Source of the DNA: Candidatus Uhrbacteria bacterium
GTDB lineage: Bacteria > Patescibacteriota > Patescibacteriia > UBA9934
Direction: 5' to 3'
Assembly: GCA_963822405.1 (NCBI GenBank)
Contig: CAWGHH010000004.1
Span: forward strand, 70,226 to 134,225
DNA length: 64,000 bases
Shown: piece by piece, positions 755 to 57,712 of the stretch
How the letters are laid out: each line of letters opens with the position of its first letter
How positions within the stretch are numbered: position 1 is the first letter of the stretch
Translations under genes and position numbers: made by a program
Notes under the pieces: generated by a model
Databases searched by the model: none
What the model was told of the DNA's origin: nothing
What the model saw: the letters and a program-made list of their open reading frames with translations, nothing else

Positions 755-784
755 GAGAGGGTCGACACAAAGGTCGACCCCTAC
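755..784. repeat. Family A palindromic element (GAGAGGGTCGAC-acaaag-GTCGACCCCTAC), intergenic rpsG/rpsL
   Basis: Perfect 8-bp arms containing SalI sites. Same 30-nt consensus as copies inside leuS and the rsmB-like gene. Confidence 0.8.
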
Positions 785-790
785 AACACG

Positions 791-1231
791 CTATTTCTTG
801 GCTGCTGCCTTACCGGCCTTTGGCTTCTTTGTGCCGTAGCGTGAACGGCTACGGTTACGACCCTCAACACCCGTAGCGTCATAACGACCGCGCACGATGT
901 GATAACGAACACCTGGAAGGTCCTTCACACGTCCACCACGGATCATGACGATGGAGTGTTCCTGAAGGTTATGACCTTCGCCTGGAATATAAGCCGAAAC
1001 TTCCGTACCATTAGAAAGACGAACACGAGCGATTTTACGAAGGGCCGAGTTTGGCTTCTTCGGGGTCATAGTAGTGACCTTCACACATACACCGCGCTTA
1101 AACGGAGCTCCCTTAGGGAGAACGGTGCGCTTACGGTGCAAAGAATCGTGCGTGTACTGCATGGCAGGAGATTTGCTCTTGCGTTTTGCAGTCTTGCGCC
1201 CTTTTCTAACTAGCTGGTTGATTGTCGGCAT
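791..1231 (-). CDS. rpsL: 30S ribosomal protein S12
   Basis: 146 aa ORF beginning [12 protein letters not shown] with [16 protein letters not shown] motif. Long basic C-terminal tail. Confidence 0.95.
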
Positions 1232-1342
1232 AAAAGTGGCAAAACTCTAACATAAGAGAAATTATTGGTCAACACACGCTATCCCCCTTGTGACCCGTAA
1301 GAATTTCCGCTAACCTTAGATGGAACCAGACGTGGAGGGATC

Positions 1343-1669
1343 ATGGCTCAAGTCATTGCTCAACTCGTCCCGCTCAATCGCGATGGTTCCGTGATCATGG
1401 AATTGCCCGAAGACGTGGCGGATGCTGACGAACCGATGGGGTTCATTAACCCGCTCGTCGGCGATCATCTGGGTTGTCTTGGATACTTCGCCCTGCGAGC
1501 GCTCGAAAACGACGCAGGAATCAGTACCACTGACCTCGTGCTCAAGTGCACGTTCTGCAACTCTTCACTCGTCATCCCGGCAAAAGTCAGGACGTACAAA
1601 GGTCTGTGGCTCTACCTCGTTGATGCTGGCGTAGTAGACGAAGATGATCTCTGGCCACGGATCTACTGA
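1343..1669 (+). CDS. Hypothetical protein (108 aa), GC-richer than surroundings
   Basis: ORF preceded by GGAGGG 5 nt upstream of ATG. TGA stop followed immediately by a GC hairpin plus T-run terminator. No recognisable family. Confidence 0.55.
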   Translation: MAQVIAQLVPLNRDGSVIMELPEDVADADEPMGFINPLVGDHLGCLGYFALRALENDAGISTTDLVLKCTFCNSSLVIPAKVRTYKGLWLYLVDAGVVDEDDLWPRIY

Positions 1670-1687
1670 CCCCGAACTGCCCTAAGG

Positions 1688-1718
1688 CCCCGCCTGAGCG
1701 CAGCGCGGGGTCCTTTTC
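1688..1718. terminator. Rho-independent terminator shared by the convergent 1343..1669 ORF and the M50 protease gene
   Basis: CCCCGCctgagcgcaGCGGGG hairpin followed by tccttttc. Confidence 0.6.
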
Positions 1719-2398
1719 TATTGACCAAGATAGTGACCAAGAAGCCCAAGACAAGACATTTGAGACAATGTGTCACAAGCGAAAGTGGCCGGAGCCTGGA
1801 CGACGATAAAAACATTCAACGGAGTTAGAAGAGAAAGGATAACTAAACCAAGAAGAATCTTTGGTCCATTCATCTCAAGCCAAGCACGAGCCTGATGGGC
1901 ATTCCCGTGAACAAGAGCTGCATCAAGAACCTTTGAGCCATCAAGTGGAGGGACTGGAATGAGGTTGAAAAATAACAAAAGCATATTTACTAACATAACG
2001 AAAACTAAAAACGCAGGAAGAATAGAATTTGGATCAAGCGAACCACTTTTAGCAAGGCCATGAAAAATCCCTGCAGCTATAAACGCCACAATTAAATTCG
2101 CAAGCGGTCCGGCAAGCGCAATAGCCACGCCATCAGCCAATGGATTTTTTAAACGCATCGGGTTGAATGGAACTGGCTTTGCCCAACCAAAACCCACAAT
2201 CAACAACATGAGCGTACCGGCAACATCTAGGTGAGCCAGTGGGTTCAATGACAATCGACCCATTTGCTCTGCCGTATCATCACCCCGCCACTTCCCCACT
2301 AGCGCATGCGCAAACTCGTGGACCGTCAAAGAAAGAATCAATGCTGTTGCCCAAGCGAGAGCGAGAAAGGGAGACGAGAAAAGAAGTTCTAGAAACAT
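1718..2398 (-). CDS. M50 family zinc metalloprotease (site-2 protease-like), integral membrane
   Basis: HEFAHAL (HExxH) motif inside a hydrophobic multi-TM protein of 226 aa. Confidence 0.75.
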   Translation of the reverse strand: MFLELLFSSPFLALAWATALILSLTVHEFAHALVGKWRGDDTAEQMGRLSLNPLAHLDVAGTLMLLIVGFGWAKPVPFNPMRLKNPLADGVAIALAGPLANLIVAFIAAGIFHGLAKSGSLDPNSILPAFLVFVMLVNMLLLFFNLIPVPPLDGSKVLDAALVHGNAHQARAWLEMNGPKILLGLVILSLLTPLNVFIVVQAPATFACDTLSQMSCLGLLGHYLGQ

Positions 2399-2401
2399 AA
2401 A

Positions 2402-3700: not shown

Positions 3701-3706
3701 ATTTAG

Positions 3707-3735
3707 AAGGGTCGACGCATGGGTCGACCCCAACG
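3707..3735. repeat. Family A element (GGGTCGACgcatGGGTCGACCCC), 6 nt upstream of murA start
   Basis: Same sequence class as copies at 29993, 30719, 43655 and 57627. Confidence 0.8.
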
Positions 3736-3740
3736 GCGAG

Positions 3741-4265: not shown

Positions 4266-4282
4266 AGTATTAAAGCTTGTAA

Positions 4283-4379
4283 GGTAAAAGAATATATTCG
4301 TCAAAATTTGAGTCGGACCCTCGGCTGAGCCTACGGGCAAGTTACCTCCTAAAAATTTTACCGAACATATTCTTTTACC
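4283..4379. repeat. Family C long hairpin with conserved loop core (expanded variant)
   Basis: Arms GGTAAAAGAATATATTCG / CGAACATATTCTTTTACC around AAATTTGAGTCGGA…TTACCTCCTAAAAATTT. Confidence 0.7.
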
Positions 4380-4455
4380 TTTGGATAGAGTACACGAGCT
4401 AGAAAAAAAGAGGAACCGCGCCCCAGGCATGCGAGCCCAGGAACGCGGTTTACGG

Positions 4456-5766: not shown

Positions 5767-5805
5767 GCGTAAAAAGTAAATTTAAGAATAAGACATTGAC
5801 CCTAA

Positions 5806-5838
5806 CAAATAGCAAAAGACGGCGCAAGTGCGCCGCCT
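5806..5838. terminator. Rho-independent terminator downstream of ndk (minus strand)
   Basis: GGCGCAcTTGCGCC hairpin followed on the minus strand by GTCTTTTGCTATTT. Confidence 0.5.
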
Positions 5839-5840
5839 TC

Positions 5841-5890
5841 AACCACCCTGAACCCCCTTTGGTCCCCCTGGGAGGGGGAAGCGAACCAAC
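5841..5890. repeat. Family B C5/G5 hairpin element, intergenic (downstream of ndk)
   Basis: aaccaccctgaaCCCCCtttggtCCCCCtgggaGGGGGaagcgaacc. Confidence 0.75.
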
Positions 5891-5892
5891 CA

Positions 5893-6360
5893 TTAGATGC
5901 CTTCGCCGAAGTGGTAGATGTCGGTCAATTTGTCGTAGGCGAAGACTTCTTCTGGTTTAAAGAAACGATTAATTTCAACGGTAGCTGCTTCAACGGAGTC
6001 AGAAGCGTGAACCATGTTTGATGGGACGTTCATGGAAAGATCAGCACGGATTGTACCTGCATCAGCTACGCGTGGATTTGTAGCACCGACGATTACGCGG
6101 ACTGTTTCAATGACATCCAAGCCCTCAAGCACCATAGCGATCACCGGGGTCTGCATCATGAACTTTAGAAGTGCCGGAAAGAAAGACTTTTCCTTCAAGT
6201 GGCCGTAGTGCTCAGTGAGTGTAGCTTCATCAAGATGAGCCATCTTCATAGCAACAATCTTCAAACCCTTACGCTCAAAGCGACCAATCACTTCACCGGC
6301 CAATTCACGCTGCAATGCATCTGGTTTAATGAGCACTAATGTCTTTTGAACTTCAGCCAT
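5893..6360 (-). CDS. ndk: Nucleoside diphosphate kinase
   Basis: MAEVQKTLVLIKPDALQRELAGEVIGRFERKGLKIVAMK… is typical NDK. Start at ATG 6358-6360. The longer ORF extension overlaps the upstream gene. Confidence 0.9.
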   Translation of the reverse strand: MAEVQKTLVLIKPDALQRELAGEVIGRFERKGLKIVAMKMAHLDEATLTEHYGHLKEKSFFPALLKFMMQTPVIAMVLEGLDVIETVRVIVGATNPRVADAGTIRADLSMNVPSNMVHASDSVEAATVEINRFFKPEEVFAYDKLTDIYHFGEGI

Positions 6361-6409
6361 AAAAAGTTTGTTTAATTTGCGTAGAAGATACGGGAGGCGG
6401 AAACGTTTG

Positions 6410-7321: not shown

Positions 7322-8757
7322 AGGTTAATCGCAGCGAAAGGCAAGGCGGCCATGGCGTCGATGATCCGCAAGATGACGTCGAGGAAGAGCCAACCAGGAA
7401 GAACCAAACCCCCTTTTATTCCCCCTAAAAGGGGGAACCAAGTGAATACATGAACCAATACCCCGAATGTGCCGGTAGCCATGGCGTAAGGTAGAAACGG
7501 GAGGACGAGGAGGTTTGTCACGGGACCGATGATTGATAGCCGATGAAAACCGAAGATGATTACTGGCAAAGTTGCGAACGTGGCGGCGAGGGTGCAAGAG
7601 AGTGATTCGCGTAAACCAAAAGCTTCGGGGATCCATTCAAGTTTAGCAGCAATTGGTTTGGCAAACGCAATTAATCCGGTAGTCGACAAAACAGATAATT
7701 GAAAACCGGTATCGTCCCGCAGGATCCGGGGCTCGATCATGACCATGATGGCCGTTGTCAGCAACAGAGCATTTCGCGCCGAACTTTTGCGACCAAGCTG
7801 CGTCGCTGAAACTGCAATGGCGCCCATGATGCCGGCTCGTAAAACAGCACCGGACCCACCGGCAATAATCACAAACGAAGCAATCGCAAATAACACAAAC
7901 GGAAATGCATACTGTCGTCGGAGTCCCGCATAGATGAGGAACGCTAGCGCCAGCGAAGACACGAGCGCAACGTTGTATCCGCTGGCCGCAACTACATGCG
8001 ACGTACCCGTAGTAATGAATTTCTGTTTCCACTTATCGGAAAATGAATTGTCGCCTAGCAACAAACCGGCGAGTAATTGAGCGTGTGGCTCGCCGTACGT
8101 TCGACGAATTTCCCCCACCGCCTTCTCGTGAATCTTCCCAAGAATAACTTTCGGATTATTTACCTCTTCTCGCTTTAAAATAAATGGTTCACTTCTCGAA
8201 TAACACTGCGCATAAATACTTTTCGCCGCAAGATATCTGTCATATCTAAAACCATCGAGTGGCTCAGGCGCTTCAAGATCGCAATGAACGCCAACTCTGT
8301 CGCCGAGCTCACCGTGAGAATAGAGCGGGACGAAGGTGAGAATTTTGTCGCCAACTTGTTCGCCGTTCACAGCCAATCGTTCGAGCGTTAACGTCTCGCC
8401 TTTCTCGCCAACTGAGTGCGTCATGATGACGCCAGTAACGCTCGCATTTTTTGCGAGGTGAAAAGCGACGGAGTTGGTCGAAGGCGTTGCAAGGGAGTAA
8501 CGCCAGATGCCGAGAAGTGAGGAGAGGGTGAAGAGAGTGAGGAGAACCCCCTTGGTCCCCCTGGAAGGGGGAAGCGAACCACTCCTGACCACCGACTCCC
8601 CCGTAGCCCCCTCTTTGAAAGAGGGGGAGGATACCACCCAACCCACGGCGCAGACGCCGAAGAGAACCAAGACTGGCCAGCCGTAGGACGCAAAAGCGAC
8701 TCCGAAGAGGAGACCTGCGAGGATGCTCGTCAGGATTCTGCTCGGAGTCGCCTTCAT
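7318..8757 (-). CDS. comEC: Competence protein ComEC/Rec2 membrane channel domain (DUF4131 + competence domain)
   Basis: Polytopic membrane protein with ComEC-like sequence. GTG at 8760 or ATG at 8755-8757, overlapping the leuS TGA stop. Carries three family B repeats in-frame. Confidence 0.75.
   Translation of the reverse strand: MKATPSRILTSILAGLLFGVAFASYGWPVLVLFGVCAVGWVVSSPSFKEGATGESVVRSGSLPPSRGTKGVLLTLFTLSSLLGIWRYSLATPSTNSVAFHLAKNASVTGVIMTHSVGEKGETLTLERLAVNGEQVGDKILTFVPLYSHGELGDRVGVHCDLEAPEPLDGFRYDRYLAAKSIYAQCYSRSEPFILKREEVNNPKVILGKIHEKAVGEIRRTYGEPHAQLLAGLLLGDNSFSDKWKQKFITTGTSHVVAASGYNVALVSSLALAFLIYAGLRRQYAFPFVLFAIASFVIIAGGSGAVLRAGIMGAIAVSATQLGRKSSARNALLLTTAIMVMIEPRILRDDTGFQLSVLSTTGLIAFAKPIAAKLEWIPEAFGLRESLSCTLAATFATLPVIIFGFHRLSIIGPVTNLLVLPFLPYAMATGTFGVLVHVFTWFPLLGGIKGGLVLPGWLFLDVILRIIDAMAALPFAAINL
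7401..7440. repeat. Family B element inside comEC, in-frame (encodes FPLLGGIKGG)
   Basis: GAACCaaaCCCCCttttattCCCCCTaaaaGGGGGAACC, flanked by GAACC direct repeats. Confidence 0.75.
8544..8632. repeat. Two adjacent family B elements inside comEC, in-frame
   Basis: Encode SPSFKEGATGES and SLPPSRGTKGVL. Second copy contains the perfect palindrome CCCCCTCTTTgAAAGAGGGGG. Confidence 0.75.
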
Positions 8758-11150
8758 CACACTACGAAGTTCACGATTTTGTTTTTAACAACGATTGTCT
8801 TCTTTGGTTCACTGGTCAAAAACTTCTGCACGTTCTGATCGGCCTTCGCGACCGCAACCACTTCGTCGTCCGCAGAATCTGGGGGCACGGAGATTGTGCC
8901 GCGGAGTTTGCCGTTTACTTGAACAGAGATCGTTACGGCTTCGTCGACGAGTAAAGCAGGATCCACTCCAGGCCAAGCTTGCGCCTCTACAAATCCTTCA
9001 TGCCCAAGCTGTTCCCAAAGTTCGTTTGCGAGATGCGGAGCGAACGGCACCAATAGAAGAAGAAACTTTTCAAAACTTTCTTTTGAAACGCCTTTTTCCT
9101 GAGCCTCGTTCACAAAGATCATGAGGGAAGAGATCGCCGTATTGAAACGGAAACCGGCGATGTCGTCTGTGACTTTTTTGATGGTTTTATTCAATGTGCG
9201 ATCGATCGAGAGAGGGTCGACATTGAAGTCGACCCCTACGCGCTCGGATAACCTCGCGATCTTGTCCAAAAATCGACGAACGCCAATCACGCCATTTGTA
9301 TTCCATGGCACTGGCTCCTCAAATGGTCCCATGAACAACTCGTACACGCGCAAAGTATCCGCACCGAATTCTTTTACAATTTCGTCAGGGTTCACTACGT
9401 TACCTTTTGACTTACTCATCTTTGTTCCGTCCTCAGACATGATGAGGCCATGGGAATGGCGACGAACATATGGCTCACTCGCCGGCACCAATCCTTGATC
9501 AAATAAAAACTTGTTCCAGAACCGTGAGTACAACAAGTGAAGCGTGGTGTGCTCCATGCCACCATTATACAAGTCGACTGGCATCCAGTATTTAAGTGCT
9601 TCTTTCGACGCAAACGCGTTGTCATTATGCGGATCCGCGTAACGCAAGAAGTACCAGCTCGAGCCAGCCCAGTTAGGCATAGTGTCGGTTTCGCGCTTCG
9701 CCGGTCCTCCACATTGAGGACATGCTGTGTTCACAAATGACTCGATAGAAGCGAGAGGAGATTCGCCGTTGTCAGTTGGTTCGTAACGTTCGACTTGAGG
9801 GAGTTCCACGGGGAGTTGAGAGTCGGGAATCGCAACCCAACCACCCTGAGACTCCCCCGTAGCCCCCTCTTGGAAAGAGGGGGAATGTGCACCGTCCTGA
9901 TCACCCTGAGCACAATGCTCGCAGTAGACTAGGGGGATCGGCTCGCCCCAGTAGCGTTGACGGGAAAAGACCCAGTCGCGGAGTTTGAAGGTGGTTTTCT
10001 TAGTACCACCTGACTTAACTATGGCCTCGTCGAACGATACGAGTGGCTTATCGACAATTGACAACTCGAAGGTCTCGGCGAACGCTCGATCACGTTCATC
10101 GTGTTGCGGAACAGCCATAACTGCGCCGGTGCCATAATGGCCAAGTACGTAATCAGCAACCCAAACCGGAACTTTTTCACCGTTAAAAGGGTTGGTCACA
10201 AATGAACCAGTAAACACGCCGGTTTTTTCTTTCGTGTCGTCGCCACGTTCAATCTCTGTTTTCTTTTTTACATCCGCAAGATATTTCGCAACTGCCTTCT
10301 TCTGTTCATCGGTAGTTAGTTTCTCGACCAATGAATGTTCGGGAGCGAGAACCACATAAGTGACGCCATCGATCGTGTCGGGGCGGGTTGTAAATACCCG
10401 GAGGGGGCCGACATCGAAGTCGGCCCGTACGACCCCCTCTGCTCCCCCTAAAAGGGGGAAGGTGATTTCGGCGCCCTCGCTTCGGCCGATCCAGTCTTCC
10501 TGTTGCTTTTTAATCTTTGGCAAATAGTCGACGTCCTTAAGGTCGTCGATCAAACGGTCGGCATACTTGGTGATGGCAATCATCCACTGCTCCTTCTCGC
10601 GCTTTTCAACGGGTGTACCACAGCGTTCGCAGCAACCGCCGACAACTTCCTCGTTCGCCAAACCAATCTTGTCTTTAGGGCACCAGTTGATCATGGTCTT
10701 CGCTTTATAGGCGAGACCAGCTTTAAAAAACTGCAAAAACTGCCACTGCGTCCAACGATAATATTTTGGATCAGTTGTATTGATCTCCCTCGACCAGTCA
10801 AAACTAAAACCAATAGATTGAAGTTGGCGACGGAAATTATCGACGTTTGTCTTAGTGACAACGGCCGGATGAACACCCATCTTTATGGCGTAATTTTCCG
10901 TCGGCAATCCAAATGCGTCCCAACCCATTGGGAACAAAACATTTTTGCCTTCCATTCTTTTCTTTCGAGCGACAACATCAAGTGCGGTATAACTGCGCGG
11001 ATGACCCACGTGAAGTCCCTCGCCGGACGGATAAGGAAACTCGACCAAAACATAATACTTGTCTTGACCCGAATCCTTCGCGTGAAAAATGCCAGAATCT
11101 TCCCAACGCTTCTGCCACTTGGGATCAATCAAAGAATGGTTGTAGGACAT
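8757..11150 (-). CDS. leuS: Leucyl-tRNA synthetase
   Basis: Begins MSYNHSLIDPKWQKRWEDSGIFHAKDSGQDKYYVLVEFPYPSGEGLHVGHP with HIGH and KMSKS (KMSKSKGN) motifs. TGA stop. Contains two family A and two family B repeats in-frame. Confidence 0.95.
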   Translation of the reverse strand: MSYNHSLIDPKWQKRWEDSGIFHAKDSGQDKYYVLVEFPYPSGEGLHVGHPRSYTALDVVARKKRMEGKNVLFPMGWDAFGLPTENYAIKMGVHPAVVTKTNVDNFRRQLQSIGFSFDWSREINTTDPKYYRWTQWQFLQFFKAGLAYKAKTMINWCPKDKIGLANEEVVGGCCERCGTPVEKREKEQWMIAITKYADRLIDDLKDVDYLPKIKKQQEDWIGRSEGAEITFPLLGGAEGVVRADFDVGPLRVFTTRPDTIDGVTYVVLAPEHSLVEKLTTDEQKKAVAKYLADVKKKTEIERGDDTKEKTGVFTGSFVTNPFNGEKVPVWVADYVLGHYGTGAVMAVPQHDERDRAFAETFELSIVDKPLVSFDEAIVKSGGTKKTTFKLRDWVFSRQRYWGEPIPLVYCEHCAQGDQDGAHSPSFQEGATGESQGGWVAIPDSQLPVELPQVERYEPTDNGESPLASIESFVNTACPQCGGPAKRETDTMPNWAGSSWYFLRYADPHNDNAFASKEALKYWMPVDLYNGGMEHTTLHLLYSRFWNKFLFDQGLVPASEPYVRRHSHGLIMSEDGTKMSKSKGNVVNPDEIVKEFGADTLRVYELFMGPFEEPVPWNTNGVIGVRRFLDKIARLSERVGVDFNVDPLSIDRTLNKTIKKVTDDIAGFRFNTAISSLMIFVNEAQEKGVSKESFEKFLLLLVPFAPHLANELWEQLGHEGFVEAQAWPGVDPALLVDEAVTISVQVNGKLRGTISVPPDSADDEVVAVAKADQNVQKFLTSEPKKTIVVKNKIVNFVV
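9208..9239. repeat. Family A element inside leuS, in-frame (encodes GVDFNVDPL)
   Basis: GAGAGAGGGTCGACattgaaGTCGACCCCTAC within the leuS reading frame. Confidence 0.8.
9841..9910. repeat. Family B element inside leuS, in-frame (encodes SPSFQEGATGESQGG), bounded by 9-bp direct repeats CACCCTGAG
   Basis: CCCCCTCTTggAAAGAGGGGG core. Direct repeats at 9842-9850 and 9902-9910. Confidence 0.75.
10401..10463. repeat. Composite family A variant (GGGCCGACatcgaaGTCGGCCC) + family B element inside leuS, in-frame
   Basis: Encodes …RADFDVGPL… and …FPLLGGAEG… in LeuS. Adjacent CCCCCTAAAAGGGGG hairpin. Confidence 0.75.
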
Positions 11151-13579: not shown

Positions 13580-14512
13580 ATGAAAGACCCACTTCCAGCG
13601 GCACTACGCGAAAGGCTAATAAAACAATGGGGCACGGGAACCTATTCCGCCATGCTCCAGGCTTTTTCCGTTAACCGAAAACCAACTTTCCGCGTCAACA
13701 CATTAAAAGCCACGGACGAAGAAGTAATGAGCATTTTTCGTGATGAACAAATCATGTTCGAACGGATCAAAACCGTCCCTCACGCCTTCATGGTTAAGAA
13801 TTTAACGGATGACGAATTACTCGAGCGCCCCCTCACCAAAGAAGGGAAAATTTACATGCAGGGGGTTTCGTCGATGATTCCACCAATCGTTCTCCTTGAA
13901 GAGAGAGGGCCGACATCGAAGTCGGCCCCTACCACCGCGTTGCGGGTTCTTGATCTTTGCGCGGCGCCGGGATCGAAGACGACCGAGATGGCAATGATGA
14001 CAAATAACTCAACGGAAATTATTGCGACCGAGGATAACGAGGTACGTTTTCAAAAGCTCGAAAATACGATTCGGATACAAGGCGCAAAAGTTGACGCCCG
14101 ACATACGGATGGCACGCTTCTGCACAAAGAATTTCCGGAATATTTTGACAAGGTCTTGGTCGATGCTCCCTGCTCTGCTGAAGGTCGAATTAACATCAAT
14201 GAAAAACGGACTTTTGGCTATTGGTCAGAAAAAAATATTGTCGAGCATGCCAAACTCCAACGTCGGCTTCTACGAGCCGCTGTGAGCTGTCTCAAGCCCG
14301 GTGGAACACTCGTCTACTCTACCTGTACCCTTGCACCCGAAGAAAATGAAAAAATGGTCGAGTGGCTCATCACCGAGTTCCCCCAAATGAAACCCGCCGA
14401 AATCACACTCTCCCTCCAAAACATCAAAAAAACTGCTCACAAAACCATCACGATGTTGCCAGCCGAAAACATGGAGGGGTTCTTTGTGGCGAAACTGGTA
14501 AAGGCCTCATAG
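13580..14512 (+). CDS. 16S rRNA m5C methyltransferase, RsmB/RsmF (NOL1/NOP2/Sun) family
   Basis: LDLCAAPGSKT (SAM-binding) and DAPCSAEG / YSTCT catalytic Cys motifs. Family A repeat in-frame at 13901-13933. Confidence 0.8.
   Translation: MKDPLPAALRERLIKQWGTGTYSAMLQAFSVNRKPTFRVNTLKATDEEVMSIFRDEQIMFERIKTVPHAFMVKNLTDDELLERPLTKEGKIYMQGVSSMIPPIVLLEERGPTSKSAPTTALRVLDLCAAPGSKTTEMAMMTNNSTEIIATEDNEVRFQKLENTIRIQGAKVDARHTDGTLLHKEFPEYFDKVLVDAPCSAEGRININEKRTFGYWSEKNIVEHAKLQRRLLRAAVSCLKPGGTLVYSTCTLAPEENEKMVEWLITEFPQMKPAEITLSLQNIKKTAHKTITMLPAENMEGFFVAKLVKAS
13901..13933. repeat. Family A variant inside the rsmB-like gene, in-frame (encodes ERGPTSKSAPT)
   Basis: GAGAGAGGGCCGACatcgaaGTCGGCCCCTACC. Confidence 0.8.
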
Positions 14513-28500: not shown

Positions 28501-30284
28501 CTAACGCTATCGGTAGCGTAACCTCCTTAGTAAAATCTGTCAGCGAATACCAAGCAAACATAATCGGCATCGCCTCAGATAACCACGGCGATTTCTCGAG
28601 TGCCGGTTACAACGTAATGGATGCCGATAACCCCATGCCCGTCGCCCTTAACGGTCGCGTCCCAGTCAAGATTGCGAACACCTCCGCCCCAATCGTCGCC
28701 GGCGACTACATCACCACCTCAAGTGAAGCTGGCAAAGGCATGAAAGCTACACTGTCCGGCGTTGTTATCGGTAAAGCACTCGAATCATGGATCCCTGACA
28801 ACGGCCAAGCGACCGTCATGGTTTTCGTCGAGCAGGGATACAGTACCGGCTCCGGAACCGACCTCGCAGAAATGTATTACTCGACAGATGAAACTATCGC
28901 GAAGGGCGACCTCGTTCGCATTGACGACAACATTCACGCCGGCGTAGCAAAAACAAACGGTACTTACGACGGAACTATCCTCGGCATTGTCGCTAGCCGA
29001 CCAGGTCTCGTGCTTCACGATCCAAAAGAAGCACATGAAGGCACAGCAGTACTCGTTGCTCTTGTTGGTCGAGTGCCTGTCAAAGTAACTACCGCTAACG
29101 GAGATGTTCATGCTGGCGACCTACTTACTTCCTCAGCTATTCCAGGAGTAGCCATGAAAGCTACCGCCGGCGGTCGAGTGATTGGTCAGGCGCTCTCTTC
29201 ATACACAGACGCCGGTGAAGGAATAGTGCAGGTATTTATTAATAATTCTTACGCCCCGACAGAAGTCTTTGCGCAGATAAATGCAGGTGCTTCAGTCACT
29301 AATCCAACTGTCGATCCAGTTGCCCCGGCATTCGTCACCACTGCCGATTTCGCTACAGCTCTCAATGAGATGAACAGTAGTTTGAACGCGCACGTTGCAA
29401 ACGAGCTTATCATCACGGACGCTCTCTCGGCTGGTGTATCTGGTCTTAATGATCGAGTCACCACCCTCGAAACCACCGTTTCCGCCAATGTTTCTGCACT
29501 TGCGGACGTTTCGACCCGTTTAATTGCGCTAGAACAAAATAGCCTAAGCCTTACTAGCCTGAATTTGCCTGGCGCCTTAGAAGTTACTGGTACCACAAAA
29601 CTCACCGGCGGATTACAGGTTGATTCGATAAGTTCTATCGGTTCTTCGATCAACTTCGCATCCGACATCAATCTCATCGGTCGCCCACTCTTTAATAAGG
29701 ACACAGGTGGCTTTGCGATTATCCACACCGGCGACACGTTCGTTCGCGTCACGTTTGAAAAGCCTTATGTCACTACGCCGGTTGTCGATGCATCCGTGAC
29801 TTTCAATGCTATCACTGATGAAATCGTGGCCGCGCAAGCTGAAGCTGATTATTTCGCGAGCGGAATGCACCTCATCGTAACCAGAAAAGACGTAACGGGA
29901 TTCACCATCATGTTGAATGCCCCGGCAACTACAGACCTGTCGTTCAACTGGATCGCGCTTGCCATTACGGATGCGAGAACGGATGAGTCGGTAGGGTCGA
30001 CGCTTGGGTCGACCCCGACACCGGTTGTTGCTGGCGCTACTGATCCTGCGCCTATTGATCCGACACCAATCCCAGATCCAACTCCGGTAGTTGATCCAGC
30101 ACCAATCATTGATCCCGTTCCCGTCGATCCAACACCTGTCGTAGACCCAACCCCAATCATCGATCCAGCCCCAATCGTTGACCCCGCTCCGATCGATCCA
30201 GTATTGGTCGACCCAATACCTGCCCCTATCGATCCGGCTCCGATTATTGATCCCGTGCCAGTCGATCCAGCCCCTGTAATCTAA
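24516..30284 (+). CDS. Giant surface protein, main segment (1922 aa)
   Basis: Continues the module WTDGGTDVTLTTSTDNVG exactly where the previous frame breaks. C-terminal DPxPI(I/V)DP repeats. Family A repeat in-frame at 29993-30020. Confidence 0.7.
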   Translation: MLAVRADGGTDITLTTSTDNVGIGGASLGKLSVDGDTDEIQLLIQGNATQTSNLAVFETSAGTDLFAISGAGELTQTYTGAGNASSITSTTTTNGSKGLIVSNTGVVTGRGYAGFFSKTGASTTNVGLYASASGATDNYAAIFDSGYVGIGTTSPIAKLNIQGWWAQTLMDGDSLAIRKPNYAGGGWARTLMDFQEYDGSTLTSMGAFGSNNTFVYGYIGAAYNDTTFQWYPDKSVAFNGSVGIGDTSPAAAFVVGNGDLFQVTSAGIIAAATGITSTGNVNFTGAILTGASPLSFDGATAGGIKTIFAITDPTVADKTITFPNATGTVALTSDLAIAGGWTDGGTDVTLTTSTDNVGVGGASLGKLSVDGDTDEIQFLVQGNATQNANLAVFENSSGTDLVTIDSLGAIAQTYAGTASTATTISMTNLTYGSGLLVIGSGAAMQSGGNLLNLSMGAATQGQAISIATTGIYTDTSGVINMFAGSLTSGIAENIEISGLTTGTGINVTGGYSMATGSELLNLNMGAATAGNGAIVTTTGIYTGTGLATLTANSATTGTGEAISMTGVTTGTGLSITGGSSMTTNGELLDLTMGTAAAGNAINITSTGVYTGTGIIKANANILTSGTLLALSSPSSAQSTAIFLDLAQTGVTTGFSGNLINLSSTATTGAAKFINLTADSSTVGIGENISMTGLTTGTGLSITGGSSMTANGELIYLNTSTAATGSAINIDNAGTYTGTGLIDLSATGMTTGTGLAITAGGLLGTGGRLTELDMGTSTAGNAINIDAISNWYEGTGLIAMTAPYLDQGTALSINSGTVGDNMADAGELIDLQLGPSSIGHGIKITDSGAYTGTGLILITANGLTTGKVINIPHTTSVIASGGSLINLSSTSIDTATTSGSLLNLSSTASTAGTQFLQTYSGLTTGIGQSIVSNALTSGKLLSLASSSTGQTSGTFLDIAQTGVTTGYTGNLLNISSSSTTGAAKFLNILADASTVGTGIELSMDALTTGKGINITSTSAGQTSASLLNIAQTGVTTGFTGSLVNISSSSTTGAGSKFLNIVADASTVGTGINLSMAAMTSGVGISITGSGASMSTGKLIDLQLGANTTGNGLAIVSSGAYSGAGIISITADSATNGTGVYISMTGRTGGQALAIIGGTGMANGTYLANLDLGAATAGAGFIAQTSGAYTGTGLGIISAPNATSGEMLLISSSGLTSSGHAISIVSGSTSGGIIIAGNGNTATSIDADGQVRIGFSTTTSSVAVCSTLGAGAAPVSGTSYFLRDCAGTITADYAEMYPVETGIEYGDILTTGTTPISVYAALPDGSGLDPTNAIGSVTSLVKSVSEYQANIIGIASDNHGDFSSAGYNVMDADNPMPVALNGRVPVKIANTSAPIVAGDYITTSSEAGKGMKATLSGVVIGKALESWIPDNGQATVMVFVEQGYSTGSGTDLAEMYYSTDETIAKGDLVRIDDNIHAGVAKTNGTYDGTILGIVASRPGLVLHDPKEAHEGTAVLVALVGRVPVKVTTANGDVHAGDLLTSSAIPGVAMKATAGGRVIGQALSSYTDAGEGIVQVFINNSYAPTEVFAQINAGASVTNPTVDPVAPAFVTTADFATALNEMNSSLNAHVANELIITDALSAGVSGLNDRVTTLETTVSANVSALADVSTRLIALEQNSLSLTSLNLPGALEVTGTTKLTGGLQVDSISSIGSSINFASDINLIGRPLFNKDTGGFAIIHTGDTFVRVTFEKPYVTTPVVDASVTFNAITDEIVAAQAEADYFASGMHLIVTRKDVTGFTIMLNAPATTDLSFNWIALAITDARTDESVGSTLGSTPTPVVAGATDPAPIDPTPIPDPTPVVDPAPIIDPVPVDPTPVVDPTPIIDPAPIVDPAPIDPVLVDPIPAPIDPAPIIDPVPVDPAPVI
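29993..30020. repeat. Family A element inside giant surface gene, in-frame (encodes GSTLGSTPTP)
   Basis: GGGTCGACgcttGGGTCGACCCC. Confidence 0.8.
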
Positions 30285-30307: not shown

Positions 30308-30814
30308 GTGGTAGCATTATGCAGTATGAAAACAATTTCAAAGGCTAAGCCTGACTCTATGAACAAACTCACGGTCATCGGTCTCCTTATATTTGCCCTG
30401 GCATCCGTAGGCGGAAACGTTTTTCTTGGAGTGAAGTATTTCTCCGCACCAAAAGTAATCAGCGTGCTTGATGAAAATCAAAAAATTATTGCTGACGTGG
30501 GTAAACTCATGGAACTACCAACTGACGAGTTGCCGACTGTAGCTAAAGTCGACGATCCGCAGCAACTCATAGATCAAGGCGTGTTCACTAAAGTTCAAAA
30601 AGATGACACGGTGCTTATTTATCCAAAAGCTAAGCGAGCTATTCTTTACCGCCCAAGCACCAATAAAATTATCGAGGTGGCCACCGTGAATATCACTGAT
30701 ACACCACCAGCGGCTACGAACGGGTCGACGCTTGGGTCGACCCCAACGCCAACGACGCCACCGGCTCCCGCGCCAATCCCGGCACCTGCCCCAACACCCA
30801 CCCCTACGCCGTAG
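30308..30814 (+). CDS. Membrane-anchored protein, paralog of the N-terminal domain of 47241..47933
   Basis: TM helix, then LPTDE…ILYRPSTNKIIEVATVNIT aligning to the LPTDE…ILYRPSTDQIIQVASINVS domain of 47241..47933. Pro/Thr-rich tail. Family A repeat in-frame. Confidence 0.6.
   Translation: MVALCSMKTISKAKPDSMNKLTVIGLLIFALASVGGNVFLGVKYFSAPKVISVLDENQKIIADVGKLMELPTDELPTVAKVDDPQQLIDQGVFTKVQKDDTVLIYPKAKRAILYRPSTNKIIEVATVNITDTPPAATNGSTLGSTPTPTTPPAPAPIPAPAPTPTPTP
30719..30748. repeat. Family A element inside 30308..30814, in-frame (encodes GSTLGSTPTP)
   Basis: Identical 23-nt core to the copy at 29993. Confidence 0.8.
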
Positions 30815-43381: not shown

Positions 43382-44062
43382 ATGCCATTTCTGTTAATCG
43401 ACAAGCCCGCCGGAATAACGTCGCATGATGTTGTAGACAAAGTTCGTAAGATAACCGGCGAACGGACTGTTGGTCACGCAGGAACTCTTGACCCTTTCGC
43501 GACAGGCTTATTGATCGTTGGCGTTGGGCGAGACTGCACCAAGCAACTTTCGACATATTTGGGCATGGATAAGGAGTATGAGGCTGAATTCGTGATAGGA
43601 GCGACCACAGAAACATTAGACCCGGAAGGAACGGTCGTCATTTCCCCATCACCGTGGGTCGACGCACGGGTCGACCCCAACGCCGAGATCCGTGACGCAA
43701 TGAAGAAACTCACCGGCGAAATCTCCCAAGTCCCTCCAATGCACTCGGCCATAAAAATAGGGGGACAAAAGATGTATGACCTAGCCAGAAAGGGAGAAAC
43801 GGTGGATATTCCGCCTCGAACACTCACCATTCACTCTTTTGAGTTACTCGACCAGCCAGATTTATCTATTTGGCCAATGGTGCTCAAGGTTAGAATTTCG
43901 TGTTCCTCGGGTACCTATATTAGAGCCTTAGCCCGAGACCTCAGCCAGCTTTTAGGTACAACGGGTTACGTTTCAGCACTTCGACGTACTAAAATCGGGG
44001 AATATTCGGTAACCTCTGCAAAAACCCTTGGCGAGCTGAGCTCTCCCGTGTTACCCTCTTAG
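43382..44062 (+). CDS. truB: tRNA pseudouridine(55) synthase
   Basis: HAGTLDPFATGLL catalytic Asp motif. Family A repeat in-frame (WVDARVDP) at 43655-43680. Confidence 0.9.
   Translation: MPFLLIDKPAGITSHDVVDKVRKITGERTVGHAGTLDPFATGLLIVGVGRDCTKQLSTYLGMDKEYEAEFVIGATTETLDPEGTVVISPSPWVDARVDPNAEIRDAMKKLTGEISQVPPMHSAIKIGGQKMYDLARKGETVDIPPRTLTIHSFELLDQPDLSIWPMVLKVRISCSSGTYIRALARDLSQLLGTTGYVSALRRTKIGEYSVTSAKTLGELSSPVLPS
43655..43680. repeat. Family A element inside truB, in-frame (encodes WVDARVDP)
   Basis: GGGTCGACgcacGGGTCGACCCC. Confidence 0.8.
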
Positions 44063-47234: not shown

Positions 47235-47240
47235 ACCAAA

Positions 47241-47933: not shown

Positions 47934-47940
47934 AATTAGT

Positions 47941-55500: not shown

Positions 55501-55591
55501 AAAATAAAACAGATACACTAAATTTAGTAAATGTACTATGTACAAAATTCTGTCTATGGATGTCCATAGCGCACGTTAGGTTGACCAACAC
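49418..55591 (-). CDS. Giant Thr/Gly-rich secreted surface protein (2057 aa segment) with ~250-aa tandem modules
   Basis: Signal peptide. Repeated modules containing ATPDL(F/L)VLD…KFRCYEG(G/V)WKDCDT and long TGT-rich beta stretches. Confidence 0.7.
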   Translation of the reverse strand: MLVNLTCAMDIHRQNFVHSTFTKFSVSVLFCVFSLVLAPFAQASVYLPGETLEPDCAPGASNCGVLPIGDANTGAGAPALVSPDTGALYLDTVGGTFFAYDGSAWVTVSGGAGLTSLNGQTGTTQTFAIGTSGTDVSFASAANVHTLNIPDASALNRGLVTTGTQLFAGAKTFGDGLTIIGDYARPMGTDFATTGVQNDVDLGTGSFFRYTGVSEATITGFAGGVDGQMVRITNASSSNLTIRHQNTSSVAANRIIIETGLDAVIPPNSTFDMQYDSGASRWRVAVLPTTASLDFAQGGNSFGAIATIGTTDAYALDLITGGATRFALAAGASTLTGTGSTTLTSTGALALSSAAASTIGITTGTTGTLTIDTGTTGAINFGNGANSKIITIGNTSGTTALNLNSGSSGISLGGNTTITGSNAFTTGTGITTINSTGITLAGNSTVINMTGTGTLSLNTTTNRAITTGTGLFTVGGDNNVDGSLTIAGNLITPHGVDFTTTGTVNNANFGIGALIRYTGASPVAFTGILAGTDGQLLTLMNAAGANTITLKNEDAGSSTDNRIITGTLGDLVLPEDTTVMLQYEIYNGYGHWHVLSPPSNVANILTTGFIQGGNSFGATEVLGSDDFYGLNLQTGGVNALTLDTSGNGNLTGDLTVTGGDISTPAVTAMNLKTGTTGVLTLDSGTTGDVNLGTGANAKIITIGNNVGATALHLDAGSGGINIDGNVTFTDGNSFSSGSGAFSVIGNFITPKGTDYSSTGTQNNVNFGSGMLFRFTGGAPATVTGIAGGTDGRQIRITNVSSSNIVLTNQDSGSLAANRIATANGESATIGTNGSISLQYDSGSLRWRVTALPVEAVAIVAGGNSFNTALNVGTTDGYPLNLITNNVTALSLDTSGNANLTGDLTVTGGDVLSAATVALNVTSGSTGVLTLDSGTTGAVNLGTGANAKTVTVGNTTTSTTLNLQSGTGGISLQVAGTGAIGNVQIGVGSGSATPDLFVLDLKNNSSADPVGGTNGASYYNTTSSKFRCYEGGGWKDCDTTGGTTTLQSAYTAGPGITTGSSADFALTLTSGNFTATGTGAVLLTPTAASSFTSADALTFTAGATSTWGTTAGDLKLQVAGTGTTAYVQIGAGSTGSATPDLLVLDTKSAVSGSGDPSGGTPGASYYNIASSKFRCYEGVAWKDCDTGGGAGLTSLNGEGGASQTLVIGTTGTDFNIVSGSGTHTFNIPDASVTNRGLVTTGAQTLAGNKTFSNDLLVNGLTTLGNATGDSVTVNGSTVTFAGNSTVIDMTGTGILSLNTVTNRAISTGTGLFTTGGGATINGDLTYTGALINTRGSDFSVTGTQNNLNLGAGTWFRFTGASQITITGIANPVNGKQIRLTNASASSMIFSNQDVSSTDVNRIITTTGGNLVIDPDVTATFQYDSTAQRWRLVILPASSGSVSSFAYIQGGNGFGTAANFGTTDAYALNLKTNGSNALVLDTSGNGNLTGDLTVTGGDIASPSATSLNVTAGTTGVLTLDSGSTGAINLGTGASSKTITIGNTTGTTAVNINAGSNNVTLTAGTTNFQTSTATNDELALTPSTGGGASFTGTLTSTDLTGSAKTWTFPNLTGNVLLDTSTCPTTGSFACGAGNNIGAALSIGTTDAYALDLMTGGSTRFEVASAASTLTGTGSTTLTSTGSLTLSSAAASTIGITTGTTGVLTLDSGSTGAVNLGTGGSSKIVTIGNTTGTTTLNLNSGSGGVVMGGNASVSGSNTFTTGTGATTFNSTALTLAGASTVMDMTGAGILGINTTTNRAVTFGSGLVTMNGGLTVTGALSATDGWYTPKGTDYITTGTTNDVDLGNGSLFRYNGAGSATITGFAGGADGRYMRIMNASASSIIFANQDVGSIAANRIITANGGGLTISPDTTVAFQYDSGASRWRTVSMPVTSSTLGATVFIQGGNAYSATAVLGTTDANALNLITGGATRFTLAAGATTLTGTGATSIASATTSALTLDSGTTGAVNLGTGANAKTITIGNTTSATSLNLQSGTGDILLAVGATSASDMVRIGNSGHRNS

Positions 55592-55712
55592 CCCAATTCA
55601 ACTTTTCTCTAGCCACAGCATACCATGCACAACTATTACTGAGCATATCGGTGCATAACTTAAATCCCGCACCTCTTGGGGCGCGGGACGTTCGTATTCG
55701 GCCGTGGCCGAA

Positions 55713-56000
55713 TTACGAAGACGGACTGTTCGTCAGCACTTGGGTGCCGATTTTTCGGACGTTGTTCCAGGCGTGACGTATTCTCACTTCCGGTAGACTG
55801 TGGTCAATCGTGGCGTCAGCCGCATCGTACGGCGGCATGCGATCAACCTGTGTAGGGTCCATGTTTGCCCCCATCACGCGGTACGTAAGCACGTGAACCG
55901 CAACCATGAAGTCGCGCGAGGCAAACAGCTGGGGCGGCGGTTTCTGTGCCCCAATCCCAAACTGTAGCGTATCCACAGCAGTGAAATTATACTCGCCCAT
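55713..56000 (-). CDS. Hypothetical protein (95 aa), GC-rich
   Basis: ORF with elevated GC. Palindrome ATTCGGCCgtGGCCGAAT immediately downstream of its stop. Confidence 0.4.
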   Translation of the reverse strand: MGEYNFTAVDTLQFGIGAQKPPPQLFASRDFMVAVHVLTYRVMGANMDPTQVDRMPPYDAADATIDHSLPEVRIRHAWNNVRKIGTQVLTNSPSS

Positions 56001-56037
56001 CTTCCCTCCAAACGTTCAAACCTCCTACAGTTTACAC

Positions 56038-56122
56038 CAAAAAAACAAAAACCAGCGTTGTCGAGAAAATGTTAGGAGGTACTCCGACTCAAATTTCGAG
56101 ACAATACTGGTCTTTTGTTTTT
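56038..56122. repeat. Family C hairpin (inverted orientation) downstream of proS
   Basis: Near-identical arms to the 45982 copy, around AAATTTGAGTCGGAGTACCTCCTAACATTTT on the minus strand. Confidence 0.7.
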
Positions 56123-56126
56123 TGGT

Positions 56127-57383
56127 TTACACGAGTACGTTCATCACTTCATTGACCGCAACAATCTTCGCCTCGCCTCCGGCACGCTCTTTCCATTCTA
56201 CTCCCCCAGCAGCCAGAGATTTTTCGGAAACAACTAGTCGAACTGGAATTCCAATTAGATCAGCGTCGGCAAACTTAGCGCCAGGACCGATTCCTTCTCG
56301 ATCGTCCCATAACACCTCAACACCCTTTGCCAAAAGCTCTGAATACAATTTGTGTCCAGCCTCGTCGATCGTAATCTGAACCTCTGGGCTTTTCGCGTTT
56401 AGAGAGATGAGATGAACCGCAAATGGCGCTACAGCCTTTGGCCAAATGATACCGTTATCATCATGGGATGCCTCAACGATTGCGCCAACTAATCGAGAAA
56501 CGCCGATTCCGTAACAACCCATGAGAATAGGTGCTCGCGTACTATCCTCAAGTTGAACACTAAAATCAAAATCTTTAGAAAATCTATCGGCTAGGTCAAA
56601 GATATTCCCAACCTCTACGCCCTTTGTTGCCACTAGCGTTCCTTTGCAGTTTGGACAAGCATCCCCCTCTTTAACCGTGGCAATCTCAGTATTCTGCGCA
56701 AAGCTACAAGCTCGACAAAGAATAAGATTATCCTCACCGGCCGGAGTTTCAACTTGGAACTCGTGCGAGGCCTTTTTGGAAAATGAACCGCCAGACGACT
56801 CAGTCACCTTCGCGTCTAAGCCCATTCGGGTATACGCTTTTAAGTACGCTTGCTTGGCTTTTTCGTAGAATGCTTCAAAGTCCTCAGCTGTCGTATGGAA
56901 CGAATACATGTCCTTCATTAAGAATTCACGACCTCTAAGTACGCCACTCTTAGCGCGTAACTCGTCACGGAATTTTGTTTGGATCTGGTAAACGGCGAGC
57001 GGAAGGTCTCGATAGCTCTTAACGAATTCCTGAACAAGAGGCGTAACTATCTCTTCGGCAGTTGGTCCAAGACCGTACTCTTTTCCTGTTTGGCTTGGGA
57101 CTTTAAAAAGTACGTCAACGGAATCCCAACGGTTAGTTTTCATCCAGTTCTCCTTTGGCTGTAACGCTGTCATCAAAATTTCCTGTGCACCAAGGGCATT
57201 CATCTCCTCGCGAACAATCTTTTCGATATTACGAAGAACTCGCAATCCAAGTGGTAACCAAGAATAAACACCAGCCATTTCCTGGTGAACAAATCCGCCC
57301 TGGACTAAATATCGAGCATTGACGCTATCTGCATCAGCCGGACGATTCTTGGAAGATTTCGAAAAAAGTTGGGAGTACTTCAT
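56127..57383 (-). CDS. proS: Prolyl-tRNA synthetase, short form lacking insertion/editing domain
   Basis: Class II aaRS motifs with ProRS-like sequence (…FRDELRAKSGVLRGREFLMKDMYSFH…). 418 aa. Confidence 0.8.
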   Translation of the reverse strand: MKYSQLFSKSSKNRPADADSVNARYLVQGGFVHQEMAGVYSWLPLGLRVLRNIEKIVREEMNALGAQEILMTALQPKENWMKTNRWDSVDVLFKVPSQTGKEYGLGPTAEEIVTPLVQEFVKSYRDLPLAVYQIQTKFRDELRAKSGVLRGREFLMKDMYSFHTTAEDFEAFYEKAKQAYLKAYTRMGLDAKVTESSGGSFSKKASHEFQVETPAGEDNLILCRACSFAQNTEIATVKEGDACPNCKGTLVATKGVEVGNIFDLADRFSKDFDFSVQLEDSTRAPILMGCYGIGVSRLVGAIVEASHDDNGIIWPKAVAPFAVHLISLNAKSPEVQITIDEAGHKLYSELLAKGVEVLWDDREGIGPGAKFADADLIGIPVRLVVSEKSLAAGGVEWKERAGGEAKIVAVNEVMNVLV

Positions 57384-57409
57384 AGTGAAAGGATGGTAGC
57401 ACCCCTTCC

Positions 57410-57712
57410 CTACGGTGTCACCTGGATCATGGATCCAGCAAAATGCGCAATAATCAAAACAATTCCAATTCCCATAATAATGAGGGCGAGCTGGAAAATG
57501 GCCTTCGCGTCCTTATCGTCAGACACGAAACCGACGAATATATATGAGGCAAAACCCAGAATTAACATTGCTGGCACACCAGCCAAGACGATTCCAACCA
57601 GTAATAATGGTGACATATATGTGGTAGGGGTCGACCCATGCGTCGACCCATTTATATACATTATAACAGAAAAAATAATGGAGGGCGCATGAGCCCTCCG
57701 AACGACGGTCAC
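57410..57712 (-). CDS. Small hydrophobic membrane protein (start uncertain)
   Basis: Two predicted TM helices. A family A repeat lies within or just upstream of the N-terminus and encodes GSTHGSTPTT. Confidence 0.35.
   Translation of the reverse strand: MTVVRRAHAPSIIFSVIMYINGSTHGSTPTTYMSPLLLVGIVLAGVPAMLILGFASYIFVGFVSDDKDAKAIFQLALIIMGIGIVLIIAHFAGSMIQVTP
57627..57649. repeat. Family A element (GGGGTCGACCCatgcGTCGACCC) in small membrane ORF region
   Basis: Encodes GSTHGSTP in the 57410..57712 frame. A degenerate half-copy lies at 58055-58075. Confidence 0.7.

Follow-up and report, generated by a model that had tools for sequence, protein, structure and literature searches.

The question raised by this locus is what kind of element a short palindrome containing the SalI site can be, when it recurs both between and inside conserved genes and leaves their reading frames open. 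The locus is a stretch of 64,000 nt from a Candidatus Uhrbacteria genome (contig CAWGHH010000004.1), hereafter the window, and the element is here called family A. Family A belongs to the class of repetitive extragenic palindromes (REPs) that carry a GTAG tag and are associated with RayT transposases, a phenomenon that is itself already known, and its copies are probably selfish hairpins that RayT has dispersed and that survive in spacers and in permissive loops of proteins. Seven matches to the exact pattern GGGTCGAC-N6-GTCGACCC are present in the window, whereas none of 100 dinucleotide-preserving shuffles contains one. A looser scan added two compensatory variants, GGGCCGAC-ATCGAA-GTCGGCCC, at 10405 and 13907, in which a T to C change in the stem is paired with an A to G change in its partner, and the total is therefore nine copies against approximately zero expected, with cores at 759, 3709, 9214, 10405, 13907, 29994, 30722, 43656, and 57628. 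An earlier note, made from the letters of this stretch, had reported at least nine copies of a SalI-palindrome element; this count is borne out, the coordinates agree, and the frequency stands above shuffled expectation for the window. The copies are as follows.

755..784, minus strand: GTAG GGGTCGAC CTTTGT GTCGACCC TCTC; non-coding, 6 nt past the stop codon of rpsL and upstream of rpsG.
3705..3734, minus strand: GTTG GGGTCGAC CCATGC GTCGACCC TTCT; non-coding, before the ATG of a murA-like (EPSP_synthase) gene, with a flavodoxin-like gene on the other side.
9210..9239, minus strand: leuS, residues 639-646, VGVDFNVDP, sense; inter-helix loop of the anticodon-binding domain.
10401..10430, minus strand: GTAC GGGCCGAC TTCGAT GTCGGCCC CCTC; leuS, residues 242-249, RADFDVGP, sense; junction with the editing domain.
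13903..13932, minus strand: GTAG GGGCCGAC TTCGAT GTCGGCCC TCTC; rsmB/F-like methyltransferase gene, residues 108-117, EERGPTSKSA, antisense.
29990..30019, minus strand: open reading frame (ORF) 24516-30284 of 1922 residues, GSTLGSTPT, antisense; start of a Pro/Thr/Asp-rich C-terminal tail.
30718..30747, minus strand: ORF 30308-30814 of 168 residues, GSTLGSTPT, antisense; ahead of a Pro/Thr-rich tail.
43652..43681, minus strand: truB, residues 92-99, WVDARVDP, antisense; coil between the strand at 85-87 and the helix at 99-109.
57624..57653, plus strand: GTAG GGGTCGAC CCATGC GTCGACCC ATTT; 8-10 nt upstream of the likely ATG of a minus-strand gene for a membrane protein of 68 residues.

When oriented by the asymmetry of loop and flanks, all nine copies follow the consensus GT[A/T/C][G/C]-GGG[T/C]CGAC-N6-GTCG[A/G]CCC-N4, a unit of approximately 30 nt with a perfect, G+C-rich stem of 8 bp and a loop of 6 nt. 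Folding as single-stranded DNA returns this same hairpin for every copy, with energies of -8.4 to -10.1 kcal/mol. The tag abuts the stem directly (0 nt) in all nine, being GTAG in four copies, GTTG in three, and GTCG and GTAC in one each, and a 3' flank of TCTC or CCTC follows three of the four GTAG copies and one other. A generic scan for 8-bp hairpins that start with GGG detected 10 in the window, compared with 0.03 for Markov controls, and no one-mismatch (decayed) copy of family A was among them, indicating that the family is made of intact hairpins only. The SalI site GTCGAC is present 38 times in the window against 17.8 expected; 14 of these sites lie within elements and the 24 that are left are unremarkable. 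An Rfam search of the window returned two tRNAs only and no match for family A.

Six of the nine copies are in-frame within ORFs and three are non-coding. The window has a G+C content of approximately 49% and is about 91% coding, and therefore six intragenic copies amount to a mild deficit from genes (p of approximately 0.04), as expected if selection removes most genic insertions; these numbers do not suggest that the element seeks genes. Relative to transcription, two of the coding copies are sense and four antisense. Given that five of the six frames of the unit are open and that its 30 nt are a multiple of three, in-frame survival is easy and needs no special mechanism. The translated peptides agree with those given by the earlier note: GVDFNVDP, ADFDVGP, GPTSKSAP, GSTLGSTP (twice), WVDARVDP and, for the ORF at 57628, GSTHGSTP. 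The predicted peptides that span the inserts are VGVDFNVDPLSIDR and ...ERVGVDFNVDPLSIDR in LeuS, ...EERGPTSKSAPTTALR in RsmB, and SPSPWVDAR in TruB. The same note had counted seven coding copies, of which six stand. The orthologue of the 57628 ORF in two relatives is 68 residues long and starts downstream of the element, and a matching methionine is present in the window ORF; for this reason the copy is counted as non-coding, and it probably lies in the 5' untranslated region or intergenic space. The genes of the window, assigned by Pfam or synteny, include rpsG, rpsL, murA-like, ndk, comEC, leuS, gdh, rsmB/F-like, infB, fpg, truB, rny, hup, proS, rnc, nusB, and gyrA, together with several giant ORFs that have no Pfam match, that of 24516-30284 among them.

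The history of the copies was read from two syntenic relatives, over 63 kb of the two genomes. The first (P0002/P0124, an 897-kb contig with loci L001 and L128) has approximately 75% nucleotide identity to the window and the second (P0122, locus L121) approximately 80%. The two hold three to five copies in these 63 kb, compared with nine in 64 kb, or one per 7 kb, in the window. Five of the nine sites (759, 3709, 10405, 13907, and 57628) are empty in relatives. In rsmB, the copy is a clean insertion of 10 codons (30 nt) with respect to the 83%-identical orthologue of L001; at 759, the element is absent from L001, whose rpsL-rpsG spacer falls short of that in the window by 31 nt; and at 57628, L128 is empty and approximately 31 nt shorter. 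At these three sites, insertion of the whole unit is demonstrated. L001 has no element at 3709. The leuS copy at 10405, which is absent from L001 and from the LeuS of T. thermophilus, is part of a compound insert of 16 codons that also contains the palindrome CCCCCTAAAAGGGGG. At 57628, L121 carries a degenerate but compensated copy, GTAG TGATCGAC GTCTCT GTCGATCC, and a compensated change of the stem (G>A paired with C>T) is thus found in that relative also. The remaining evidence is of sharing. The leuS site at 9214 is occupied in L001 (window 9214-9235, L001 11799-11820), with CCATGC as the loop, and the truB copy at 43656 is common to the window and L121 with one loop base changed; the insertions at these two sites date back far enough for sister genomes to have them in common with the window. 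The truB of L128 is empty, 5 codons shorter, and has the half-site ATCGAC (TCT ATC GAC, where the window reads TGG GTC GAC). Conversely, two copies are found only in L128 at places where the window is empty, one intergenic and one in the orthologue of window ORF 62818-63147, where it encodes GSTEASTPT. In other lineages, the same loops of LeuS and TruB hold versions of the motif (AVGVDPSIDP, GADVPVGP, RVDTWIDPY) as well as unrelated inserts. The expectation that the peptides are lineage-specific, and that alignment of LeuS, TruB, and RsmB with orthologues would show it, therefore holds in part: rsmB and leuS 10405 are unoccupied in relatives, as are the other three empty sites, while leuS 9214 and truB are occupied in nearest relatives, P0002 and P0122, respectively. 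No target-site motif or duplication could be derived from the filled and empty pairs, which are only 75-80% identical.

Mapping onto structures is in agreement with tolerated positions. Residues 242-249 of LeuS, and an insert of 25 residues at 411-435, fall in gapped or variable segments of the alignment to the T. thermophilus LeuS structure. The rsmB insert stands directly before the AAPGxK motif that binds S-adenosylmethionine, at a place where solved RsmF/NSUN homologues are gapped by 8-10 residues, and the TruB insert falls in a gapped or variable segment with respect to the solved TruB of M. tuberculosis and T. maritima. In the AlphaFold model of TruB, which has a mean predicted local distance difference test (pLDDT) score of 86, residues 88-98 are coil between a strand and a helix, with lower local confidence. 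In the model of LeuS all three inserts are coil, and for two of the three, 242-249 included, the pLDDT falls under 50; the mean pLDDT of 66 is poor, so that this model lends weak support to the loop location. Taken with the gaps in the solved homologues, the models support the placement of the coding copies in predicted loops.

The core is not restricted to this lineage. RayT is a REP-associated HUH/Y1 tyrosine transposase related to the TnpA of IS200/IS605 and is thought to disperse REPs; GTAG-REPs and REPIN-RayT (TnpA-REP) systems were reportedly treated by Nunvar (2010), Bertels and Rainey (2011), Ton-Hoang (2012), and Messing (2012). A scan for GTAG-GGGTCGAC-N6-GTCGACCC over one genome per species, with loci of at most 8 kb each, found the exact 26-nt core in at least 118 stretches against approximately 1 expected by chance. 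Among the matches listed there are more than 10 phyla (Chloroflexota, Bacillota, Pseudomonadota, Planctomycetota, Acidobacteriota, Bacteroidota, Campylobacterota, Zixibacteria, Eremiobacterota, Patescibacteria, and others), with genomes of 27-77% G+C that often carry the core on several contigs and that include cultured isolates. Unbiased clustering of the ORFs in the listed loci recovered a protein of 166-200 residues in 8 of the 118. This protein carries HUH and catalytic tyrosine motifs (hhMPNHhHhh and WQRNYYEHhIR, respectively), scores above the Pfam threshold for Y1_Tnp, and is named 'REP element-mobilizing transposase RayT' in source databases; among NCBIfam models it fits that of the REP-associated tyrosine transposase best, above the IS200 model but below the equivalog cutoff. 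The RayT-like genes are flanked by the core and also carry it in-frame, in paired orientation. The typical flanking pair is a doublet of the CGGAC and TCGAC stems, with a copy of the GGGCGGAC stem on one strand and a copy of the GGGTCGAC stem on the other, approximately 110 nt apart. One of these loci (L114) is from Candidatus Shapirobacteria, a lineage of the Candidate Phyla Radiation (CPR). Other fully complementary stems (CGGAC, CAGAC, CGAAC, and others) accompany TCGAC in 42 of 124 loci, and given this covariation the family can be written as GTAG-GGG-N5-loop-N5'-CCC. In other CPR genomes the core is in-frame in a class I aminoacyl-tRNA synthetase, TruB, a FolC-like protein, a cyclophilin, and a large surface protein, and in one such TruB it occupies the same loop as in the window, in the opposite orientation. 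Viral contigs seldom contain the core, with 4 matches in 2.9 million, so that carriage by phages is not evident. In metagenome scans, the loop sub-family of the window had no matches and the core with the TCTC flank had 2, and a 9-kb Logan contig that extends the window by 3.9 kb contains no element.

Two observations on the RayT-like loci stand by themselves. Nearly all members of this clade of RayT-like proteins (P0241-P0360; loci L072, L080, and L114) have hairpin-derived peptides right after the HUH motif, for example VGADLRVCP...GEHxGSPLH, which is GTAGGGGCAGACCTGCGTGTCTGCCC with its inverted partner; the RayT gene holds a REP pair in its own frame, and the length of the protein varies from 166 to 282 residues with the number of embedded units. 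Two examples, P0241 and the protein of L114, encode VGVDPCVDP. In addition, strict lineage specificity and vertical inheritance of RayT-REP systems would not lead one to expect a core spread over more than 10 phyla.

Several likenesses place family A among the GTAG-REPs. A GTAG-like tetranucleotide abuts a short G+C-rich hairpin (8 bp here; 6-13 bp in published families, with GTAG or GTGG/GTRG placed 0-2 nt 5' of it), nine copies are dispersed over the 64 kb of the window, sub-families are set apart by compensatory changes of the stem, the identical core lies beside RayT-like Y1 genes in other genomes, and copies abut start and stop codons or are translated in truB and aminoacyl-tRNA synthetase genes. 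There are also differences. The host belongs to the Patescibacteria (CPR), whereas published surveys are mostly of Proteobacteria; the loop has 6 nt rather than the 2-4 nt of most published families; and extragenic location, the usual feature of REPs, holds for the minority, given that two-thirds of the copies in the window are intragenic and inside the folded part of essential enzymes. Only singletons are seen in the window. The cognate RayT is not seen there, and a RayT flanked by the core is found in 8 other listed genomes, that of L114 included. The 26-nt core is common to more than 10 phyla, whereas one report (10.1101/2022.05.22.493013) characterises REPIN-RAYT systems as specific to lineages and passed on vertically. 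Di Nocera et al. (2013) sorted the REPs of 8 phyla into GTAG and CGTC super-families, linked the GTAG-REPs to RayTs, and listed REPs lying wholly inside ORFs, including tRNA synthetase and truB genes, as an acknowledged minority that was argued to occupy flexible linkers and loops (PMC3733652); the intragenic share in the window thus differs from theirs in degree. The earlier note had presented the behaviour as possibly undescribed for this sequence family. Given that the GTAG-REP/RayT class, with intragenic members in these very kinds of genes, is already published (PMC3733652), that claim was too strong. In the literature searched, no description was found of this particular core or of its occurrence in Patescibacteria, of a population made up mostly of intragenic copies inside folded parts of essential enzymes, of a core so nearly identical from phylum to phylum, or of a REP pair set in-frame within RayT genes; such absence is no proof of novelty.

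In the mechanism that we consider likely, the hairpin and its GTAG tag would form on single-stranded DNA and be recognised and cut by RayT, a Y1 HUH enzyme. The copies would thus be dispersed by RayT, with selection keeping those that land in spacers or permissive loops. In a genome that is 91% coding, the survivors would be of two kinds: copies wedged into very short intergenic spacers by start or stop codons, and copies that kept the frame open in permissive loops or low-complexity linkers, where translation adds 8-10 residues to the protein. A RayT encoded in this genome outside the window would have moved the copies, the element would still be active, and its peptides would be retained in the mature proteins. 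A broader version of this mechanism is possible but tentative. It holds that the system is promiscuous and spreads horizontally with its near-invariant GTAG-GGGTCGAC-N6-GTCGACCC, that the in-frame pair in RayT may be a master copy or an autoregulatory device, and that the TruB and LeuS loops of CPR bacteria are hit recurrently, with turnover or conversion at the site accounting for the six loop differences at leuS 9214.

A number of findings weigh against dispersal of family A by RayT. No RayT-like ORF is present in the window or in the 63 kb of the two relatives (L001, L121, and L128); a profile search for RayT, with at least 8000 matches, is uninformative for this genome, none of the 120 listed lying on contigs of this genome or its relatives. 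The window has no REPIN doublets, in which two inverted REPs are separated by a short spacer, its copies being all singletons with the closest pair 728 nt apart, and it lacks the partner with the GGGCGGAC stem that is known beside RayT genes elsewhere. The tag is GTTG, GTCG, or GTAC rather than GTAG in five of nine copies, a degeneracy somewhat beyond the published range of GYAG/GTRG/GTMG. Occupied alleles are not 30 nt longer than empty ones in truB (15 nt), leuS 9214 (approximately 12 nt), and the L128-only copy (3 nt). At leuS 9214, all six loop bases differ from those of L001 with none of the 28 stem and flank bases changed, in a gene that is approximately 75% identical; simple vertical descent does not explain this pattern, which suggests that the element was replaced or converted at a fixed site. 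Finally, eight of the nine copies are on one strand of the window, the G-rich one, and this 8:1 bias is not reproduced: a relative has two copies on the other strand, and strand against local GC skew is split 65:72 in the 118 other loci. For this reason there is no support for targeting of the lagging-strand template, and a replication-strand bias is not supported.

Some of these points would be accommodated if the motif had been built in place by a sequence-specific drive that overwrites proteins instead of lengthening them. The drive could be a bias in DNA uptake, as with uptake signal sequences and DNA uptake sequences (USS/DUS), a bias linked to methylation or repair, as proposed for HIP1 of cyanobacteria, or gene conversion between copies. 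Such a process would leave occupied alleles only 1-5 codons longer than empty ones, as in truB, leuS 9214, and the L128-only copy, and half-sites such as TCT ATC GAC in the empty truB; it would fill the same loops in several lineages and swap a loop in a conversion-like manner with the stem unchanged, as at leuS 9214, and the genome does encode ComEC. The clean differences of 30-31 nt at rsmB, 759, and 57628 are not what overwriting produces, however. The identical core flanks RayT-like genes in many phyla, the compensatory variation of the stem indicates that a hairpin is recognised rather than a linear word, and the one-mismatch intermediates are not found in the window. As for the small length differences, variable loops accumulate indels, and at 60-80% identity such differences are weak evidence. 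Construction in place is therefore rather improbable. The likeness to HIP1 and USS/DUS is that of a short, over-represented, palindrome-containing word in coding regions and in several frames. Those are linear words of 8-12 nt that spread without a change in length, whereas family A is a 30-nt hairpin unit with whole-unit presence and absence and an association with a transposase.

The perfection of the stems raises another reading, in which the copies are signals in RNA or DNA that serve the host under selection and were mobile only historically. Candidate roles are a stabiliser of mRNA or RNase III site, an attenuator between rpsL and rpsG, a pause in translation or folding, and a binding site for a nucleoid protein. 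None of the nine stems has a mispaired base and decayed copies are not found, two sites have kept intact stems across a nucleotide divergence of approximately 20-25%, three copies are within 10 nt of a start or stop codon, and REPs elsewhere are reported to influence mRNA stability and termination (PMC3733652). These are set against unrelated genes and positions, coding copies in both orientations, the absence of a T-run after any copy, and the lack of the element at most sites in relatives, where the genes function in its absence; selection for a host function is an improbable source of the pattern. A last reading, that the inserted codons are removed before the protein is mature, by excision, translational bypass, or intein-like splicing, was offered by the earlier note as the alternative to tolerated loop insertions. 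Its sole basis is the presence of insertions in the essential enzymes LeuS and TruB. A unit of 30 nt has no features of an intein, intron, or bypass, the copies are in predicted loops tolerant of extra residues, orthologues vary in length in many ways at the same loops, and the peptides of Rickettsia palindromic elements (RPE) are reported to be expressed (cited in PMC3733652). Removal is thus extremely improbable, and of the two options of that note it is the tolerated loop that agrees with the predicted locations, while nothing points to removal.

The same note had likened the family to RPE as selfish DNA in reading frames. That comparison is right in spirit and partly supported, in that selfish hairpins are tolerated in protein loops. 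RPE, which were reportedly described by Ogata et al. in 2000, are also palindromic and selfish, lie in-frame in conserved genes (truB included) of a reduced genome, and are translated and tolerated in surface-exposed regions. The likeness is one of behaviour only. The architecture is that of a GTAG-REP, there is no sequence similarity to RPE and no Rfam match, the host is a member of the Patescibacteria, and RPE-1 has approximately 100-150 bp and encodes 30-50 residues, compared with 30 nt and 10 residues for family A. The short RPE carry the tag CGTC instead of GTAG, and we know of no dedicated transposase for them. RPE-4 and RPE-6 have been equated with CGTC-REPs (PMC3733652). With IS200/IS605 elements and their non-autonomous derivatives, the palindrome-associated transposable elements (PATEs), family A would share a Y1 HUH enzyme that recognises a hairpin and an adjacent tetranucleotide on single-stranded DNA. 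Unlike them, it has no left and right ends and no tnpA/tnpB cargo, a target tetranucleotide could not be derived, and the RayT-like proteins fit the NCBIfam model for REP transposases better than the IS200 model.

Two other origins were also considered. Family A does not have the form of intrinsic terminators, given that no T-run follows the hairpin on either strand in any of the nine copies and that six copies are inside ORFs. An artefact of assembly or adaptors is rejected, as the insert-bearing TruB is recorded in assemblies of NCBI, ENA, and Logan, two of the insertion sites are also filled in relatives that come from other samples, and the core is present in isolate genomes of Flammeovirga, Ruminococcus, and Halonatronum. 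A hairpin of terminator-like form is found in the relatives downstream of gyrA (L121 17785-17808, L128 17481-17504), where GGGCCGAC-N8-GTCGGCCC is followed by a T-run; its stem is the same as that of the family A variant, and it has no counterpart in the window.

The findings on family A do not overturn current understanding. They extend the biology of REPs and RayT to the Patescibacteria, with genomes of approximately 1 Mb and almost no intergenic space, and show a REP population where protein loops are the only refuge left. The insertions provide a catalogue of permissive sites in LeuS, TruB, and RsmB/F, and they are a warning for annotation, given that motifs of 8-10 residues such as VGVDxxVDP, GSTxGSTPT, and xVDxxVDPY in CPR proteins are derived from repeats. 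The core found across phyla and the REP pair in the frame of RayT bear on the question of whether these systems are vertical, 'domesticated' residents or cross between lineages.

Family A is not the only hairpin of this kind in the window. A second family, designated family B, has the form GTAG-CCCCCTCTT-N3-AAGAGGGGG, with two copies in the window against 0 expected. Both are in-frame, and their peptides follow SPSF(K/Q)EGATGES.

8603..8627, plus strand: GTAG-tagged GTAGCCCCCTCTT-TGA-AAGAGGGGG; comEC-like ORF, peptide SPSFKEGATGES.
9859..9883, plus strand: GTAG-tagged GTAGCCCCCTCTT-GGA-AAGAGGGGG; leuS, peptide SPSFQEGATGES.

The leuS copy lies within the insert of 25 residues, which is absent from L001 and from the LeuS of T. 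thermophilus. With its two copies of family A, leuS has therefore received three GTAG-REP insertions from two families. The palindrome CCCCCTAAAAGGGGG is a third repeated sequence, with two copies (7421-7435 and 10444-10458) against 0.01 expected and no GTAG tag. Both copies are translated as PLLGG, one in the comEC-like ORF and the other in leuS; the leuS copy adjoins the family A copy at 10405, and that in the comEC-like ORF shows no length difference with respect to the relative. At the junction of ORF 30308-30814 and ORF 30824-31831, positions 30826-30850 hold GTAC-GGGCTTGGC-GCC-GCCAAGCCC, a perfect hairpin of 9 bp that may be a further REP-like singleton.

Other differences between the window and its relatives do not involve the hairpins. 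In L121, positions 5185-6574 beside infB hold a diversity-generating retroelement (an RVT_1 reverse transcriptase and a bAvd-like gene), a module that the window does not have. The segment 57673-58356 of the window (approximately 680 bp, from the 57628 element to tRNA-Lys) is absent from both relatives; it contains overlapping ORFs of approximately 100 residues with no Pfam match and may be a small insertion beside a tRNA gene. Finally, the block 46074-55591, which holds an ORF of 2057 residues and three more ORFs without a Pfam match and is missing from the syntenic L121, is a variable island of giant genes, typical of the surface proteins of CPR bacteria.

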